Below are positions 21,842 to 59,264 of a DNA stretch of 64,000 nucleotides, piece after piece. The translations under genes were made by a program, and so were the position numbers. The notes under the pieces were generated by a model. The model saw nothing but the letters and a program-made list of their open reading frames with translations. It did no database searches and had not been told where the DNA came from. The stretch spans positions 18,041-82,040 of the forward strand of contig CABYCY010000004.1 of assembly GCA_902517615.1 (NCBI GenBank), given 5' to 3'. This DNA is from an uncultured Pelagibacteraceae bacterium. GTDB lineage: Bacteria; Pseudomonadota; Alphaproteobacteria; Pelagibacterales; Pelagibacteraceae. The stretch's first letter is position 1; each line of letters begins with the position of its first letter.

Positions 21842-22447
21842 ATGCAAAAATTCGATAAATTAAAAAGTATTCCTGCGTATCTGCCAATAGTTAATATCGA
21901 TACAGATATGATTATTCCAAAGCAGTTTTTAAAAACAATTAAAAGAACAGGGCTTGGAAAAAATCTATTTTTTGAAATGAGATATGATGATCAAGGAAAC
22001 GAAATAAATGATTTTGTATTAAATAAAGAGCCATTTAATAAATCTAATATCTTGATTGCTGGAAAAAATTTTGGGTGTGGATCATCAAGAGAGCATGCTC
22101 CTTGGGCTTTGTTAGATTTTGGAATAACTTGTGTCATTAGTTCTAGTTATGCAGATATTTTTTATAGCAACTGCTTTAAGAATGGAATTTTACCGATAAT
22201 ACTTGAAGAAGAAAAAATTAAAGAATTATCTGAATATGCCAATAGAAAAGAAGAGATATCTATTGATTTAAATGAGGAAAAAATTGTTTACGGAAATAAT
22301 GAAGTTGAATTTAAAATAGATCCATTTAAGAAAAAATGCTTGCTTGAAGGATTAGATGATATTGCTCTTTCATTAAAAAAATCAGATAAAATTGAAAATT
22401 TTGAAAATGATTTAAAAAATACTAAACCATGGATTTTTAATGATTAA
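21842..22447 (+). CDS. leuD: 3-isopropylmalate dehydratase small subunit
   Basis: [32 protein letters not shown]-like SYADIFYSN. Confidence 0.97.
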
Positions 22448-23572: not shown

Positions 23573-25336
23573 ATGCCAAGTTATACAGCTCCTTTAGATG
23601 ACATGTTATTTCTCTTTGAAAAATTAAGAGATAATAAAAATTATAATGAGCTAGAAAAATATAATGAAGTTAATTTAGATTTAGCAAAAGATATCTTAGA
23701 GGAAGCTGCAAAAATAAATCAAAATCTTTTATTACCACTTGCATTGGCTGGAGATGAAAATCCTGCTAAATTAGAAAATGGTGTTGTTAGAACCCCGCCA
23801 GGTTATAAAGAGGCTTATAACAAGTATATAGAAGACGGGTGGATATCGTTATCTTGTGATCCAAAATATGGTGGTCAGGGAATGCCTAAAACAATAAGTG
23901 CATTTTTCGATGAAATGTTATCTTCAACTTCACTTTCTTTTAAACTTTATAGTGAATTAACAATTGGTGCTTACAATTGTTTATTACATCACGCAAGTGA
24001 CGAGACTAAAGATAAATATCTTCCAAAAATGGTTGAAGGAAAATGGAGTGGAACAATGTGTTTAACAGAACCAGTTTGTGGAACTGATTTGGGAATGTTA
24101 AAAACTAAAGCTGAAGAACAAGCAGATGGTACTTTTAAAATTAGTGGGCAAAAAATATTCATTACTTCAGGCGATCATGATCTTACCGAAAATATTATAC
24201 ATTTAGTGATAGCTAGAGCCACCGACTCCCCTAAAGGAACAAAAGGAATAAGTTTGTTTCTTGTTCCTAAATTTATAGTAAATGAAGATGGATCTACAGG
24301 AACTAGAAATGGTGTGTCCACTGGTTCGGTAGAGCATAAAATGGGCATTAAAGGTTCAGCAACTTGTGTTTTAAATTTTGATGAAGCTACTGGATATTTG
24401 ATTGGAACAAAAAATAGAGGTTTAAATCAAATGTTCACAATGATGAATTTAGAAAGAATTTTGGTAGGCATTCAAGGTTTGGGAATATCTGAAATAGCTT
24501 ACCAGAATTCACTTGCATATGCTAAGGAGAGAAAACAAGGAAAAACAAATAATACTAAATCAACTAATGGGGCAGATTTTATAATTGAACACGCGGACAT
24601 TAGAAAATCTCTATTAAATATGAAATCAATTATTGAAGGTGAAAGAGCTTTATGTTTTTGGCTGTCGCAACAAACAGAAGTAAGTCTTAATCATCCTAAT
24701 GAAAAAGTAAAAAAAGAAGCATCTGATTATGTTTCACTAATGACACCAGTTGTAAAATCGTTATTTACAGATTTAGCAATGGAAATCACTAGCGATGCAA
24801 TGCAAATTCATGGAGGATATGGATTTACTAAAGATCAAGGAATTGAGCAATTGTATCGAGATAATAGAATTACTCCAATTTATGAAGGTACTAATTCAGT
24901 CCAAGCTGCCGATTTAGTATCTAGAAAACTTTTAAATAAAAATGGAAACATAATCGGTAAATTTTTAGAAATGATTAAAGAGGAAACAAATAGTAAAAAT
25001 GAAAAAGTAAAAATATTTACCAAGCAATTAAATTATTATTTAGATATTCTATCAAAGTTTACTGACTGGATTATTGATAAAAACAAAATAGATAAAGATG
25101 ATGTAAGCTCGGCAGCAAATGATTACTTAAAAACACTTGGATATGTTTCATTAGCATATTCATGGATTAAAATTTTAGAGGTAAGTTTTAAAGATTTAGA
25201 CTCAAATAAAAAATTTTATATTGATAAAATCAATACAGCTCAATTTTATTTTGAAAAAATATTACCTAGAGCTGAATATCATTACAAATCTGCAATTTCA
25301 GGAAGTTCTAATATAATGAAATTTAACTTCAATTAA
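23573..25336 (+). CDS. dmdC: Acyl-CoA dehydrogenase, 3-methylmercaptopropionyl-CoA dehydrogenase by context
   Basis: MPSYTAP start, GTMCLTEP, GQKIFIT, EHKMGIKGS, QIHGGYG, IYEGTN; same operon as dmdA. Confidence 0.85.
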   Translation: MPSYTAPLDDMLFLFEKLRDNKNYNELEKYNEVNLDLAKDILEEAAKINQNLLLPLALAGDENPAKLENGVVRTPPGYKEAYNKYIEDGWISLSCDPKYGGQGMPKTISAFFDEMLSSTSLSFKLYSELTIGAYNCLLHHASDETKDKYLPKMVEGKWSGTMCLTEPVCGTDLGMLKTKAEEQADGTFKISGQKIFITSGDHDLTENIIHLVIARATDSPKGTKGISLFLVPKFIVNEDGSTGTRNGVSTGSVEHKMGIKGSATCVLNFDEATGYLIGTKNRGLNQMFTMMNLERILVGIQGLGISEIAYQNSLAYAKERKQGKTNNTKSTNGADFIIEHADIRKSLLNMKSIIEGERALCFWLSQQTEVSLNHPNEKVKKEASDYVSLMTPVVKSLFTDLAMEITSDAMQIHGGYGFTKDQGIEQLYRDNRITPIYEGTNSVQAADLVSRKLLNKNGNIIGKFLEMIKEETNSKNEKVKIFTKQLNYYLDILSKFTDWIIDKNKIDKDDVSSAANDYLKTLGYVSLAYSWIKILEVSFKDLDSNKKFYIDKINTAQFYFEKILPRAEYHYKSAISGSSNIMKFNFN

Positions 25337-25338
25337 TT

Positions 25339-26955
25339 ATGAACCATTACGAAACAAATTTAGATAAAAATAAAGCTAATTATGTCCCTTTAACGCCACT
25401 AACTTTTTTAAAAAGAGCAAAAGAAATTTATCCTAATTATGAGGCTGTAATTTATGAAGATCGTAAATATACTTGGACAGAAGTCTATAAAAGAAGTGTT
25501 AAATTTGCGAGTGCACTTTCTAAAATTGGTATTAAGAAAGGTGATACAGTTTCATTTTTAGCTTTTAACACCCCAGAAATTTTTGAGGCACATTATTCGG
25601 TACCAATGATTGGTGCTGTATTAAATACAATTAACATTAGATTAGATGCTAATACAATTGCGTATATTTTAGAACATAGCGATGCAAAAGTTTTAGTTGT
25701 AGACAGGCAACTTCATATTGAAGTTAAAAAGGCATTAAAATCTATAGATAAAAAAATTATTACAATTGATATTGATGACAAGCATGCAGACCAATCAAAA
25801 TCCGAGAAAATTGGTGATTTAGAATATGAAAGTTTTTTAAATACGGGCGATGAAAATTATGATTGGCAAATGCCAGATGACGAATGGCAATCTATTTCAT
25901 TAAGTTATACTTCTGGGACCACAGGAAATCCAAAAGGAGTTGTTTATCATCATAGAGGAGCTTATTTAATGTCTACTGGAAGTTCAGTTGCATGGAATAT
26001 GCCAAATAGATTAAATTTCTTAACTGTAGTTCCAATGTTTCATTGTAATGGATGGTGTTATCCATGGACTATCCCTATGTTAAATGGAAGAACAATATGT
26101 TTGAGAAACATTGATATAAAAAAGATTTTTGAATTGATTGATAAATATGATGTAACTCATTTTGGAGGTGCACCTATAGTTTTAAATATGATTACAGGGG
26201 CGTCTGAGAATGATCAAAAAAAATTAAAACAAAAAGTATTTGTTTTAACTGCTGGAGCTCCTCCTCCAAGTATAATTTTCAAAAAAATGAAAGCACTTGG
26301 TTTTGAGGTGATGCATGTTTATGGATTAACAGAAACATATGGACATGTTACCCAATGCGCATGGAATGATGAATGGAATAATTATGATGAGGAAAGACAA
26401 AATGAAATTAAAGCAAGGCAAGGTGTTAGATATCCTAACACCGAAGGTGTATCTGTTTTAGATCCCGAAACAATGAGAGCAGTTCCTAAAGACGGGAAGA
26501 CAATTGGAGAGATAATGATAAGAGGGAACGTAGTAATGAAGGGGTACTTTAAAGACAAGGATGCTACAGATAAAGCTATGAAAGATGGATGGTTTCATAG
26601 TGGTGATTTAGCAGTCATGTATCCAGACGGATATGTCAAAATACAAGACAGATCGAAAGATATAATTATCTCAGGTGGAGAGAATATTTCTTCAATTGAA
26701 ATTGAAAATACTCTTTCTAAACATCCATCAGTTTCTATTGCTGCAGTTGTTGCTAAACCAGACGAAAAATGGGGAGAAGTTCCTTGTGCATTTATTGAAA
26801 TGGTTAAAAATAAATCTGTTTCGGAAAATGAATTAATCGATTTTTGTAAAGAAACTTTAGCAGGATTTAAAGTCCCAAAGAAAGTTGTCTTCTGTGAGTT
26901 ACCAAAAACCTCAACAGGAAAAATACAAAAATTTGAATTAAGAAAACAGGTTTAG
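25339..26955 (+). CDS. dmdB: Acyl-CoA synthetase, 3-methylmercaptopropionate-CoA ligase by context
   Basis: YTSGTTGNPKG, PMFHCNGW, YGLTET, GWFHSGD, DRSKDIIISGGENISS, PKTSTGKIQK; between dmdC and dmdA. Confidence 0.85.
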   Translation: MNHYETNLDKNKANYVPLTPLTFLKRAKEIYPNYEAVIYEDRKYTWTEVYKRSVKFASALSKIGIKKGDTVSFLAFNTPEIFEAHYSVPMIGAVLNTINIRLDANTIAYILEHSDAKVLVVDRQLHIEVKKALKSIDKKIITIDIDDKHADQSKSEKIGDLEYESFLNTGDENYDWQMPDDEWQSISLSYTSGTTGNPKGVVYHHRGAYLMSTGSSVAWNMPNRLNFLTVVPMFHCNGWCYPWTIPMLNGRTICLRNIDIKKIFELIDKYDVTHFGGAPIVLNMITGASENDQKKLKQKVFVLTAGAPPPSIIFKKMKALGFEVMHVYGLTETYGHVTQCAWNDEWNNYDEERQNEIKARQGVRYPNTEGVSVLDPETMRAVPKDGKTIGEIMIRGNVVMKGYFKDKDATDKAMKDGWFHSGDLAVMYPDGYVKIQDRSKDIIISGGENISSIEIENTLSKHPSVSIAAVVAKPDEKWGEVPCAFIEMVKNKSVSENELIDFCKETLAGFKVPKKVVFCELPKTSTGKIQKFELRKQV

Positions 26956-26963
26956 GTAATTTT

Positions 26964-27740
26964 TTGATTTTTCAATTAGAAAATAAAAGTATTTATGCGT
27001 CTGATGCAGGACAAGGCATAGATCAAAATAAAGAAACTATAGTATTTCTTCATGGAAGTGGCCTCTCACACATTGTTTGGTCTCTAACAGAACAGTTTTT
27101 TTCAAATAATAATTTTAATGTTTTATCTATTGATTTACCTGGACATGGAAATTCAGATGGTCCGTGCTTGGAAAGCATTGAAAAAATAGCTGATTGGCTA
27201 GAAAAAGTTTTTGATAAATTAAATTTAAATAATTTAATTTTAATTGGCCATTCTCAAGGATGTTTAGAGATAATTGAATATGCTCACAAATATAGGAATA
27301 GATTAAAAAAATTAGTTTTTGTTGGTGGCTCAAATAAAATGCCAGTTCATCCAGATTTAATAGACCTAGCAAAAAATGGAGACTCTGATGCAGTTAAATT
27401 AATGATGAAGTGGGGATTTACTGACTCAAAAAAATTTATTGGAGGCAATCCAATAGAAAAAATAATTCAGTCACCTAGAGATATAAGAGACATACTGGCT
27501 GTTGATCTGGTTGCATGTAATAATTACAAAAATGGTTCTGAAGCTGTAAAATCAATAGAATGTCCATCGATGTTAATTTTTGGATCTTTAGATAAGATGT
27601 TAAACTTAGAAGCTGGAAAAAAATTTTCTAGTTTAATCAGTAATTCATCAACCTATATAATAGAAGGTTGTGGTCATATGATTATGATTGAAAAAGCATT
27701 TGAAATGAGAGAGAAAGTTTTAGAATTTTTAAAATCATGA
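26964..27740 (+). CDS. Alpha/beta hydrolase of unknown function within the dmd cluster
   Basis: TTG start with AGGT RBS; FLHGSG, DLPGHG, GHSQG elbow, GCGHM. Confidence 0.85.
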
Positions 27741-28846
27741 AAAATTATTTAATTGCAAAATCAAGAAGACTTAGAAGCACACCATACACTTCTAGAATTG
27801 AGGAACAAGGCGTTACAGCTTATACAACTTATAACCATATGTTACTTCCTGCTGCTTTTGGTTCAATAGAGGACTCTTATCATCACTTAAAAGAGTATGT
27901 TCAAATTTGGGATGTAGCAGCTGAAAGACAAGTTGAAATTTCTGGAAAAGATTCTGCTAAATTAGTTCAGTTAATGACTTGCAGAGATTTATCAAAATCT
28001 AAGGATGGAAGATGTTATTATTGTCCAATTATAGACGACAATGCTGGACTAATTAATGATCCAGTTGTTTTAAAAATAAATGAAAACAAATGGTGGATTT
28101 CTATTGCTGATACCGACGTAATATTATTTGCAAAAGGACTAGCAATTGGAAATAAATTTGATGTAGAAATTATAGAACCCAATGTTGACATTATGGCCGT
28201 ACAAGGTCCGAAATCCTTTAAATTAATGGAAAAAGTGTTTGGAGATAAAATTACAAAACTAAAATTTTTTGGTTTTGATTATTTTGATTTTGGCGGTGCA
28301 AAGCATCTTATTGCACAATCAGGATGGTCCAAACAAGGTGGATATGAAGTTTATGTTCAGAATACTCAAGTTGGTTTAAGATTATATGATCATTTATTTG
28401 AAATTGGAAAAGAATTTAATGTTAAACCAGGGTGTCCTAATTTAATTGAACGTATCGAAAGTGGACTGTTATCCCATGGTAACGATATGGATAATGGAGA
28501 TAATCCTTATGAATGTGGTTTTGATAAATATGTAAATATAGATAGCGATGCCATATTTTTAGGAAAAGAAAAATTAAAAAAAATAAAATTTGATGGAATT
28601 AAAAAAAAATTAATGGGAGTTAAATTTGATATAGAAAAAATTAGTTTAACGGGATCTTTAAATTTAATGGATAATGAAAATAATATCATAGGAGAATTAA
28701 GATCAGCTTGTTATTCGCCTCATTTTAAAAAAGTGATTGGTATCGCTATGATGAAAAAACCACATTGGAATATAGACCAGGACCTAAAAGCTGAGATAAA
28801 TGGTGATATTTGTGGTGGTAAAGTTTGCGATTTACCTTTTATTTAG
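27737..28846 (+). CDS. dmdA: DMSP demethylase (GcvT family)
   Basis: 369 aa; [56 protein letters not shown]-terminal DLPFI, matching my recollection of Pelagibacter DmdA. Confidence 0.95.
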
Positions 28847-57546: not shown

Positions 57547-58143
57547 TTATTTCTCGATTAAAAATATACCTAGATCTGCAGATAAATTTTTAAACCCTAA
57601 ATTATTATCATTTATTAAAGAGGTATTAAAATTGTTTAATGCCAGTGATTTAAAAATTTTTATATCCTTTGATTTAATAAAATGAACAAAATCTTTTATT
57701 GTACACATATGTAAATTTGCAGTGTTGTACCATTCGTCTGGTAGTGTTTTAGTGATTGGCATTGTTCCTTTAAATAGTAAATGAACTCTTATTCTCCAAT
57801 AACCAAAATTTGGGATTGTTACTATTGCTTTTTTTCCAACTCTTAAAAGTTCGTTCAAAACTAATTCGGGATTTAAAAAAGCCTGAAGTGTTTGACTTAA
57901 AATAACGTAATCGAAAGATTTATCTGGAAATTGTTTCAAATCTGTTTCAGCATTCCCTTCTATCACGGTCAAACCTTTTGCTATGCATTCTTGAACTTTT
58001 TCTTTAGAAATTTCTAATCCTCTAATATTTATATTTTTGTCATCTTCCAAAAATTTCATCAAAGTCCCATCAGCACAACCTACATCTAGTACTTTTTTAT
58101 CTTTTTCGATTAAGTCTGCTATTACCTTGAATTCTTTTTTCAT
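57547..58143 (-). CDS. metW: Methionine biosynthesis protein MetW
   Basis: VLDVGCADG, QGLTV-like KGLTVIEG, VILSQTLQ, PNFGYWR, WYNTANLH; 4-nt overlap with metX. Confidence 0.92.
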   Translation of the reverse strand: MKKEFKVIADLIEKDKKVLDVGCADGTLMKFLEDDKNINIRGLEISKEKVQECIAKGLTVIEGNAETDLKQFPDKSFDYVILSQTLQAFLNPELVLNELLRVGKKAIVTIPNFGYWRIRVHLLFKGTMPITKTLPDEWYNTANLHMCTIKDFVHFIKSKDIKIFKSLALNNFNTSLINDNNLGFKNLSADLGIFLIEK

Positions 58144-59264
58144 TTTTCATTTTCCACATATGATTTATCTAAAAAGTTTTTAAGAGCATTTAAAAAATTA
58201 GGAACATCAAGTAAGAAAGAATCGTGACCTTTATCAGACTCTATTTCGACAAACCCAACATCAGCTCCAATTGAATTTAATGCAATAACGATTTCTTTAT
58301 TTTCCTGAGTTGGATAAAGCCAATCAGAAGTAAAAGAGATTATAAAAAATTTAGCTTTTGTATTTTTAAAAGCTTTTGAAAGATCTCCATCAAATTGCTT
58401 AGCTAAATCAAAGTAATCCATAGCTCTAGTAATATAAAGATAGCTATTTGCATCAAATCGATCAACAAAAACTGAACCTTGATATCTTAAATAACTTTCA
58501 ATTTGAAAGTCTGCATCAAAACCAAATTTAAGATCTTCTCTTTCCTGTAATTTTCTTCCAAATTTTTCCTGCAAACCTTTTTTTGATAGATAGGTTATAT
58601 GAGCAGCCATTCTAGCTACGGCCAATCCTTTACCTGGAATTGTATTGTTGGAAGCATAATTTCCATCTTTCCAATTACTATCGGCTGTAATTGCTTGTCT
58701 TCCTAATTCATTTAACGCAATATTTTGAGCTGAATGACTAGAAGTTGTCGCAATAGGTATTACTGTTTTAGCTTTGTCAGGAAAGTTACTTATAAATTGA
58801 AGAACCTGCATACCACCCATTGAGCCTCCAGTTATAGAAAACAGTTTATCAATATTAAAATGATCAAGTAAATTATATTGTGCGTTAACCATATCATTAA
58901 TCGTAATGACTGGAAAATTGGTTCCAAAAATATTATCGGAGACAGGATCTTTATCGCTCGGTCCATATGAACCCATACATCCACCAATTACATTTGTGCA
59001 GATAACAAAATATTTATTTGTATCAATTGCTTTGTTTGGGCCAACTGCATAGCTCCACCAGCCATCTTTTTTTGTAACAGGATTTATGCCAGTTACATAT
59101 TGATCTCCTGTAAGTGCATGAAATACTAATATAGCATTATTTTTTTTTAAATTGAGTTCTCCGTAAGTTTCGTAGGCTATAGGAAAATTATTTATAGTTT
59201 TACCACAGTCTAGTTTTAGTGGTTTATTAACAATTAAAGTTTTTAAGTTTTTCTCAGTATTCAT
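58140..59264 (-). CDS. metX: Homoserine O-acetyltransferase
   Basis: AYETYG, HALTGD, NVIGGCMGS, GGSMGG, RFDANSY, GHDSFL. Confidence 0.95.
   Translation of the reverse strand: MNTEKNLKTLIVNKPLKLDCGKTINNFPIAYETYGELNLKKNNAILVFHALTGDQYVTGINPVTKKDGWWSYAVGPNKAIDTNKYFVICTNVIGGCMGSYGPSDKDPVSDNIFGTNFPVITINDMVNAQYNLLDHFNIDKLFSITGGSMGGMQVLQFISNFPDKAKTVIPIATTSSHSAQNIALNELGRQAITADSNWKDGNYASNNTIPGKGLAVARMAAHITYLSKKGLQEKFGRKLQEREDLKFGFDADFQIESYLRYQGSVFVDRFDANSYLYITRAMDYFDLAKQFDGDLSKAFKNTKAKFFIISFTSDWLYPTQENKEIVIALNSIGADVGFVEIESDKGHDSFLLDVPNFLNALKNFLDKSYVENEK

Follow-up and report, generated by a model that had tools for sequence, protein, structure and literature searches.

Demethylation is a main marine bacterial route to the sulfur and carbon of DMSP, and it diverts DMSP from DMS. 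SAR11 bacteria are the most abundant carriers of dmdA, the gene for the DMSP demethylase; they have no DmdD orthologue, the last step of the pathway is left without an assigned enzyme, and 'alternate enzymes are hypothesized' (PMC5069961). In Ruegeria pomeroyi this step is catalyzed by DmdD, a hexamer with the crotonase fold whose reaction involves Glu121 and Glu141. Its release of methanethiol is spontaneous after hydration, with malonate-semialdehyde-CoA as the product, and cleavage of the CoA ester is a separate reaction that depends on Glu141 (PMC3660561, Tan et al. 2013). This second activity is the role that we propose below for a SAR11 protein of a different kind, an alpha/beta serine hydrolase that lacks an ECH domain.

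Two other described enzymes resemble this hydrolase. AF-Est2 (Archaeoglobus fulgidus, PDB 5FRD) is an archaeal esterase with a preference for pNP-valerate; it does not act as a thioesterase on acetyl-CoA or succinyl-CoA but does hold CoA, with the pantetheine in its leaving-group pocket, where Cys172 is ~4 Å from the thiol of the bound CoA (PMC4861933). MetX shares with the hydrolase an alpha/beta fold and a Ser-Asp-His triad, employs acetyl-CoA acyl-enzyme chemistry and is associated with MetY in some bacteria, but it is a protein of ~370 aa with a large lid domain, whereas the hydrolase has 258 aa and no MetX lid domain.

The presence of the hydrolase gene in the SAR11 dmd cluster is already published. 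Sun et al. 2011 (PMC3160333) give the same gene set for SAR11 Ia, with dmdB and dmdC drawn in the arrangement described here, dmdA of strain HTCC1062 tagged SAR11_0246 and the hydrolase drawn as "mhpC" without comment. Our literature search turned up no discussion or test of the function of the hydrolase. The same search found nothing on SAR11_0247, which we take to be its HTCC1062 counterpart (the tags of this cluster presumably run from SAR11_0246 to SAR11_0249), and nothing relevant on a metY-linked hydrolase or an S-methyl-thioester esterase. New here are the one-to-one co-occurrence of the family with MetY, its two exclusive states within one genus, a tree with clade-specific substitutions, the count of crotonase genes inside the operon (51/64 loci) and the adjacency of crotonase and SBP56 genes (15/15).

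The hydrolase gene and its neighbors

The window, meaning the whole 64-kb stretch of DNA that was analyzed (30.7% G+C, 97.6% coding), is part of contig C4 of a 1.32-Mb genome that is 91% complete. Between positions 22440 and 33122 of the + strand, it contains in order leuB, a dmdC-type gene, a dmdB-type gene, the hydrolase gene, dmdA, asd and sdhCDAB. The features relevant to this study are as follows.

23573..25336, + strand: dmdC-type acyl-CoA dehydrogenase, 587 aa (Pfam Acyl-CoA_dh_N, _M, _1 and Acyl-CoA_dh_C)
25339..26955, + strand: dmdB-type AMP-dependent acyl-CoA ligase, 538 aa (PF00501, PF13193, NF006020)
26964..27740, + strand: alpha/beta hydrolase, 258 aa (from the open reading frame, its translation and Pfam)
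26964..26966, + strand: TTG start codon of the hydrolase, the sole start before Met126
27252..27254, + strand: codon of Ser97, the nucleophile in GHSQG (G95-H96-S97-Q98-G99), aligned with AF-Est2 Ser89
27516..27518, + strand: codon of Cys185 in the family motif D-L-x-A-C, aligned with AF-Est2 Cys172
27591..27593, + strand: codon of Asp210, the catalytic acid in GSLDKM, aligned with AF-Est2 Asp200
27675..27677, + strand: codon of His238, the catalytic base in GCGHM, aligned with AF-Est2 His228
27737..27740, + strand: ATGA, the 4-bp stop/start overlap of the hydrolase gene and dmdA, read in the sequence
27737..28846, + strand: dmdA, DMSP demethylase, 369 aa (NF009133 equivalog)

Assignment of dmdA is secure (577.6 bits against NF009133, cut-off 410), and the dmdC-type gene keeps the same cluster position in related genomes. 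The dmdB-type ligase scores 863 bits against NF006020 (cut-off 677) and 346 bits against NF005426, the 3-(methylthio)propionyl-CoA ligase model, which is below that model's cut-off of 822; the name dmdB for the SAR11 ligase comes from the SAR11 literature (PMC3160333, PMC6850173).

[quoted passage not shown] Its best solved-structure match is AF-Est2 (E 4.8e-18, full length, ~24% identity). The two proteins have in common their fold (TM 0.81), a GHSxG elbow, a triad in register, as judged from a phmmer alignment against the published triad of PDB 5FRD, and a D-L-x-x-C lid motif in which AF-Est2 Cys172 corresponds to Cys185. Unlike the hydrolase, AF-Est2 has no link to dmd or metY gene contexts. 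Ser97, Asp210 and His238 are invariant in a family alignment (A1) of 25 diverse homologues, and Cys185 is at least 90% conserved across the family, in the dmd-linked and metY-linked clades alike.

An AlphaFold2 model of the hydrolase (mean pLDDT 93.4) predicts the canonical order of strands and helices with a helical lid at residues 130-196. Foldseek aligned this model to many alpha/beta hydrolases at TM 0.8-0.86, its matches in the PDB being generic small esterases, haloperoxidases and lactonases only, and a search of the ESM Atlas returned just 'alpha/beta hydrolase' clusters. The protein database contains 4712 homologues, the best of them named Pelagibacterales, and the homologue clusters carry names that are pipeline defaults only. 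The top NCBIfam match is the alpha/beta domain of acetoin-dehydrogenase acetyltransferase; MetX models (TIGR01392, NF001209) are not among the best 25 of 30 NCBIfam matches, and scores for named small alpha/beta hydrolases fall far under the equivalog cut-offs (bioH 58/207, menH 74/209, pcaD 65/256 bits). A Pfam scan found no PF00378 (crotonase/ECH) domain in the hydrolase, which separates it from DmdD and AcuH, and PF00975 (Thioesterase) gave a weak match (32.5 bits) in the metY-linked Pelagibacter copy only.

An earlier note on this DNA, made from the sequence alone, had described an intact serine hydrolase with GHSQG, GSLDKM and GCGHM motifs, 8 bp after dmdB and overlapping dmdA by 4 bp, and the reading frame, Pfam matches, aligned triad and coordinates all agree with that description. 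Same-strand gaps in the window have a median of 2 bp, and overlaps of 1 or 4 bp occur at 10/53 junctions. Because tight spacing is ordinary here, the 8-bp gap and the 4-bp overlap provide no evidence of a functional link, and we dropped any meaning read into them. The evidence for such a link is conserved synteny. The note had also taken the TTG start to suggest low stoichiometry, a conclusion that the start codon does not allow in view of the mRNA levels. TTG is kept in 17/17 dmd-linked orthologues with the same N-terminus (56-91% identity), which also have an AGG ~8-10 nt upstream, and in HTCC1062 microarrays the values for SAR11_0247 (~6.1-7.6, log scale) are similar to those for dmdA (SAR11_0246). 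The same or a similar overlap with dmdA is present in most orthologous loci checked.

A MetY-coupled family with two exclusive states in Pelagibacter

A family profile identified the hydrolase in 40/400 other Pseudomonadota genomes. At each of the 29 loci examined outside SAR11 (29/29), the gene is immediately downstream of a MetY gene. NF006004 scores above its cut-off in 39/401 genomes, and these are 39 of the 40 hydrolase-bearing ones, with the two genes at adjacent coordinates; conversely, all 39 genomes with an NF006004-type MetY also have the hydrolase. No other gene is conserved in the metY-hydrolase neighborhood, an Rfam scan found no SAM riboswitch at 11 of these loci, and a MetX-type gene also occurs in 28/30 genomes that bear the module. 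A strict metY-hydrolase pair is thus the ancestral and general context of the family, and it suggests that direct sulfhydrylation or the assimilation of methanethiol includes a step not yet recognized. The pair is spread through Alpha-, Beta- and Gammaproteobacteria.

The MetY-coupled proteins are true homologues of the window's hydrolase, which scores 338 bits against the family profile (A1), within the 235-352 bits of metY-linked members, and which the tree places within the family. Their pipeline names are just 'alpha/beta fold hydrolase' or 'pimeloyl-ACP methyl ester carboxylesterase'. Genomic position sets the window's gene apart. The MetY-coupled genes adjoin an NF006004-type metY, whereas the window's gene sits between dmdB and dmdA, rather than directly downstream of such a metY, in a genome that has none.

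We then compared 151 Pelagibacterales genomes, 101 of which belong, with the window's own genome, to the genus Pelagibacter; the sampled genomes are close kin, and counts drawn from them overstate independence. dmdA was counted in all 101. These tallies include an unpublished genome (G083) that has no hydrolase and no strong dmdA match, and its weight here is limited to one count in 101. An orthologue of the hydrolase (55-100% identity) was found in 81/101 genus genomes, in the window's genome and in one genome of another genus (G113), and in these 83/83 genomes the dmdA match begins within ~15 bases of the hydrolase match. The hydrolase-dmdA junction is present in ~80% of the sampled Pelagibacter species. 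In one genome (G124), the hydrolase copy is broken by stop codons.

Other genus genomes show a second state. In ~18/101 Pelagibacter species, the dmd cluster contains no hydrolase and dmdB is joined directly to dmdA. In 17 genus genomes the sole homologue is 40-43% identical and located elsewhere. Two genomes (G062 and G095) illustrate this arrangement: their dmd cluster reads leuB-dmdC-dmdB-dmdA-asd, with no gene between dmdB and dmdA, and their hydrolase homologue overlaps by 4 bp the 3' end of a gene for a MetY-type sulfhydrylase that scores 660 bits against NF006004 (cut-off 636). An NF006004-type MetY occurs in 18 genus genomes, the same 17 plus one that is cut by a contig end (G128). It is absent from the window's genome, whose best MetY is 44% identical and of another subtype, and from all 81 sampled genomes with a dmd-linked copy. 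Among the 101 Pelagibacter genomes, the dmd-linked and metY-linked states of the hydrolase are mutually exclusive.

A midpoint-rooted maximum-likelihood tree unites the dmd-linked proteins in one clade (100/100), which has a long stem (0.96 changes per site). Its sister group, weakly supported (87/49), is formed by the metY-linked copies of Pelagibacter, and both Pelagibacter groups join one further metY-linked row at 100/98. As placed by this tree, the dmd-linked clade is a single derived, fast-evolving branch of the family.

Comparison of the two clades separates what was kept from what changed. Conservation of at least 85% in both the dmd-linked and metY-linked clades is seen at 37 positions, including H36, W39, W78, M126, V128, W150, D181, C185, Y188 and M212. 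Five substitutions (R44Q, D35S, T213V, P214N and L249R) are fixed in the dmd-linked clade at sites that are invariant or near-invariant in metY-linked enzymes. R44 is invariant in the latter and D35 is 90% conserved, and both are replaced throughout the dmd-linked clade, which has also gained basic residues (R249, K251 and K156) and lost ~9 residues from the lid loop. The substitutions and the lid deletion are consistent with a switch to another substrate or partner once the gene had moved.

A crotonase that accompanies the hydrolase

The dmd cluster of the window contains no crotonase gene, as the earlier note had observed, and this extends to the whole contig; the two PF00378 genes of the genome are on contigs C10 and C1. 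One of them encodes an ECHDC3-like crotonase of 259 aa (C10:18942-19718; match to PDB 2VX2 at E 6e-63; 342 bits against NF006008). This crotonase is present in 94/101 Pelagibacter genomes. Outside the genus, family members have it only in G113 and G123, which are also the only two with dmdA there. The distribution of the crotonase thus mirrors that of dmdA in the Pelagibacterales sample.

Other genomes place the crotonase gene within the dmd cluster itself. The order in G113 is fadB-like, dmdC, dmdB, osmC-like, crotonase, hydrolase (with a TTG start) and dmdA. A separate scan of species-representative genomes identified 64 further Pelagibacteraceae loci with the same type of hydrolase. The crotonase gene is directly upstream of the hydrolase gene in 51/64 of these, in the order (fadB-like)-dmdC-dmdB-(osmC-like)-crotonase-hydrolase-dmdA, and the remaining 13/64 have the dmdB-hydrolase order of the window. 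In sister lineages, the fadB-like gene immediately precedes dmdC. In addition, a gene of the SBP56 family (the methanethiol-oxidase family) occurs in 15 genus genomes, the window's included, and is directly downstream of the crotonase gene in 15/15.

The 51/64 gene order and the 15/15 SBP56 adjacency together indicate that the hydrolase occurs alongside a crotonase and does not take its place, and that this crotonase is tied to methanethiol. The idea of the hydrolase as a crotonase replacement is ruled out by the same gene order. Since crotonase-fold enzymes act on acyl-CoA esters, the neighbor points to a CoA-ester substrate for the hydrolase as well. The reaction of the crotonase itself is uncertain, because both canonical glutamates appear to be absent; where rat enoyl-CoA hydratase has its two catalytic glutamates, this protein, like ECHDC3, appears to have Gln and Gly. 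There are two concrete, co-localized candidates for the last, methanethiol-releasing step of the pathway, the ECHDC3-like crotonase and the serine hydrolase. Both can be expressed and assayed, as enzymatic synthesis of the substrates is already possible.

Candidate reactions of the hydrolase

A lineage without DmdD needs a means of CoA-ester disposal, which makes a serine hydrolase beside a crotonase and dmdA an obvious candidate. Our preferred reading, to which we assign a probability of about 0.45, is that the hydrolase acts on a thioester and provides, in trans, the CoA-releasing half of the DmdD reaction. The earlier note had proposed a thioesterase for the missing step of the pathway; this proposal holds up as the best single guess for the end of the pathway, but not in its form as a stand-in for an absent crotonase. 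The hydrolase gene abuts dmdA in all 83 sampled genomes with the orthologue but is missing from the cluster in ~18/101 Pelagibacter species.

The gene, its triad, the synteny, the family history and the transcription are shown by the data above. The protein is a cytoplasmic Ser-Asp-His hydrolase and a SAR11 offshoot of the MetY-paired family. In an ancestor of most Pelagibacter, its gene moved in front of dmdA, and several residues invariant in MetY-paired enzymes, along with part of the lid loop, were lost after the move. We infer the substrate and the division of labor with the crotonase as follows. DmdB and DmdC would generate methylthioacryloyl-CoA, which a crotonase-type enzyme (the ECHDC3-like crotonase and the FadB-like protein being the candidates) would hydrate. 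Methanethiol would then depart spontaneously, and the hydrolase would cleave the remaining malonate-semialdehyde-CoA via an acyl-Ser97 intermediate, freeing CoA.

Several observations argue for such an in-trans thioester hydrolase. The gene adjoins dmdA in 83/83 genomes with a conserved TTG start and overlap, its HTCC1062 counterpart has mRNA at a dmdA-like level, and its frequent crotonase neighbor tracks dmdA and is always followed directly by SBP56 where the latter occurs. The dmd-linked proteins are monophyletic, with a long stem, fixed changes and new basic residues. The chemistry of DmdD is separable into two steps (PMC3660561), and SAR11 has no DmdD orthologue (PMC5069961). The top NCBIfam match is to the alpha/beta domain of an acetyltransferase, and the best PDB match by sequence is an enzyme that holds CoA, with corresponding pocket residues: in the 24%-identity alignment, AF-Est2 L118, V120, L169 and C172 become M126, V128, L182 and C185.

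Other observations weigh against this reading. AF-Est2 is inactive on acetyl-CoA and succinyl-CoA, the residues with which it contacts the CoA nucleotide (R117, R119, R182, K206 and Y207) are not conserved in the hydrolase, identity to it is only ~24% and the Foldseek matches are generic. Support from AF-Est2 for a CoA-ester role is by analogy and suggestive only. The ancestral partner, MetY, catalyzes a reaction without a CoA ester, and 18/101 Pelagibacter species have dmdB and dmdA with nothing between them. The ECHDC3-like crotonase apparently lacks both canonical glutamates, and closely packed genes are the norm in this genome.

The pocket comparison also bears on a first alternative. Both clades of the family keep M126, V128 and C185 but vary at the acyl-pocket positions and in the lid loop, and this pattern would equally fit a small leaving group shared by both contexts, such as methanethiol, which would explain the link to MetY. 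The hydrolase might accordingly be read as an S-methyl-thioester hydrolase that releases methanethiol in both contexts from thioesters with different acyl parts, an explanation that we consider unlikely. The metY-side copy would supply methanethiol to the sulfhydrylase, and in the dmd operon the thioester would come from MMPA-CoA intermediates or from methanethiol plus acyl-CoA. Methanethiol, a product of the dmd pathway and a substrate of MetY (PMC5069961), is the sole metabolite common to the two contexts. The mapped leaving-group pocket is small and hydrophobic (M126, V128, L182, C185), there is no evident conserved basic patch for the CoA nucleotide, and the mutual exclusion of the dmd-linked and metY-linked copies across 101 genomes suggests equivalent roles. 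Against this, we know of no such S-methyl thioester in either pathway, and the pocket mapping comes from an alignment at 24% identity. Methanethiol moreover departs spontaneously after hydration of methylthioacryloyl-CoA (PMC3660561).

The near-universal partner of the family is a MetY-type sulfhydrylase, so its chemistry may lie on the methanethiol or methionine side altogether. It is improbable, in our estimate, that the dmd-linked enzyme has simply retained an ancestral function as MetY partner in methionine synthesis, outside any CoA pathway. Possible reactions would be hydrolysis of homocysteine thiolactone or turnover of O-acyl-homoserine by-products, and the gene would neighbor dmdA only because DMSP-derived methanethiol is assimilated by MetY. 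The strict pairing with NF006004-type MetY (39/40 and 39/39, adjacent wherever checked), a neighborhood that conserves these two genes only, the exclusive states within Pelagibacter and the position of asd after dmdA in the window are all in keeping with this. The partner subtype of MetY is absent, however, from the very genomes at issue (the window's and 81 dmd-linked ones), R44 and D35 are replaced across the dmd-linked clade, the lid is shortened and the gene travels with the crotonase in sister lineages.

We think it decidedly improbable that the protein takes no part in DMSP catabolism and is instead a general short-chain esterase, kept beside dmdA by the extreme compaction of SAR11 genomes and the shared ancestry of the sampled species. 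Gene spacing is uninformative here, the sampled genomes are close kin and the structural neighbors are all promiscuous esterases, as such an enzyme would have it, but the synteny persists to 55% identity and across genera, and the gene stays together with the crotonase gene and dmdA where the gene order is different. SAR11 genomes, furthermore, keep few dispensable genes.

More speculatively, and with little probability in our view, SAR11 may complete DMSP demethylation without DmdD, by a beta-oxidation-like route that retains the CoA thioester and involves the FadB-like protein, the hydrolase and the ECHDC3-like crotonase. The FadB-like protein may hydrate methylthioacryloyl-CoA and then oxidize the product to the S-methyl thioester of malonyl-CoA, the hydrolase may cleave this thioester with release of methanethiol, and the crotonase may decarboxylate malonyl-CoA to acetyl-CoA. 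Such a route, if true, would give the ECHDC3 family its first function and provide a reason why relatives of the hydrolase feed MetY.

Least credible of all is a compact homoserine O-acetyltransferase that makes O-acetylhomoserine via acetyl-Ser97, with MetY then trapping methanethiol. MetX belongs to the alpha/beta-fold acyltransferases, the top NCBIfam match of the hydrolase is an acetyltransferase domain, and metX is downstream of metY in some bacteria, the place that the metY-linked hydrolase occupies. It also favors this activity that beta-proteobacterial MetX can be succinyl-specific, leaving an OAH-specific MetY without substrate (PMC13683966). We rejected the hydrolase as the cell's homoserine O-acetyltransferase, given that it lacks both the MetX lid and any MetX model among the best 25 of 30 NCBIfam matches, that a MetX-type gene is present in 28/30 module-bearing genomes and that the window has its own metX-metW pair (57547-59264), whose MetX (58140-59264, 511 bits against NF001209) carries Leu316 at catalytic Asp+2, a position taken by Arg in succinyl-type enzymes, and is thus predicted to be of the acetyl type.

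The dmd operon in related genomes

Many Pelagibacteraceae single-cell genomes carry a longer dmd operon, in which the gene order is fadB-like, dmdC, dmdB, osmC-like, crotonase, hydrolase and dmdA. The OsmC-like and FadB-like genes are additional members of this operon, and the crotonase lies inside it at 51 of 64 Pelagibacteraceae loci. One example comes from G113, a Pelagibacteraceae genome of another genus, and further loci are L077-L140.

G113, L074:5924-14763, (-): seven-gene dmd operon

The dmd-linked hydrolase is broken by TAA stops in a single genome (G124, contig C2:29729-30494), where the gene has decayed or the assembly is faulty.

The window itself is extremely compact: across positions 1-64000 about 97.6% is coding, same-strand neighbours lie a median of 2 bp apart, and genes overlap at 14 of the 53 junctions. 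Spacing alone is therefore an unsafe ground for operon inference in the source genome, G000.

Related genes elsewhere in the source genome

The following genes lie outside the window on other contigs of G000.

C1:25456-26565: second dmdA-family gene (NF009133, 524 bits, above the cut-off of 410)
L001:1495-2274, within C10:17374-19718, (-): ECHDC3-like crotonase (PDB 2VX2, E 6e-63)
L001:2-1282, within C10:17374-19718, (-): SBP56 (methanethiol-oxidase family) gene

G000 also holds additional, lower-scoring aminomethyltransferase paralogues, and such weaker paralogues have been described for SAR11 Ia. The SBP56 gene lies directly downstream of the ECHDC3-like crotonase; among 102 genomes of the genus, 15 carry it, and it adjoins the crotonase in all 15. 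This crotonase apparently lacks both of the glutamates that are canonical for crotonases.

A metY-hydrolase module and the window MetX

Genes of the family to which the window hydrolase belongs also occur in a strict two-gene module, where they follow an NF006004-type metY, often with a 4-bp overlap. This module (loci L014, L016-L043 and L044-L055) is present in approximately 10% of sampled Pseudomonadota, spanning Alpha-, Beta- and Gammaproteobacteria, and genomes that encode it hold a second, ordinary MetY or MetZ as well. An Rfam scan of 11 metY-hydrolase loci found no SAM riboswitch. In G062, a Pelagibacter genome, an ORF without any Pfam or NCBIfam match separates the metY-linked hydrolase from a second MetY-type gene.

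G062, L004:4687-5796, (-): 369-aa ORF
Window, 57547-59264, (-): metX-metW pair (MetX: NF001209, 511 bits)

The window MetX scores too low for either the acetyl-specific or the succinyl-specific model. Because it has Leu316 at catalytic Asp+2, the Arg/Leu rule for MetX acyl specificity (PMC13683966) predicts an acetyl-type enzyme.
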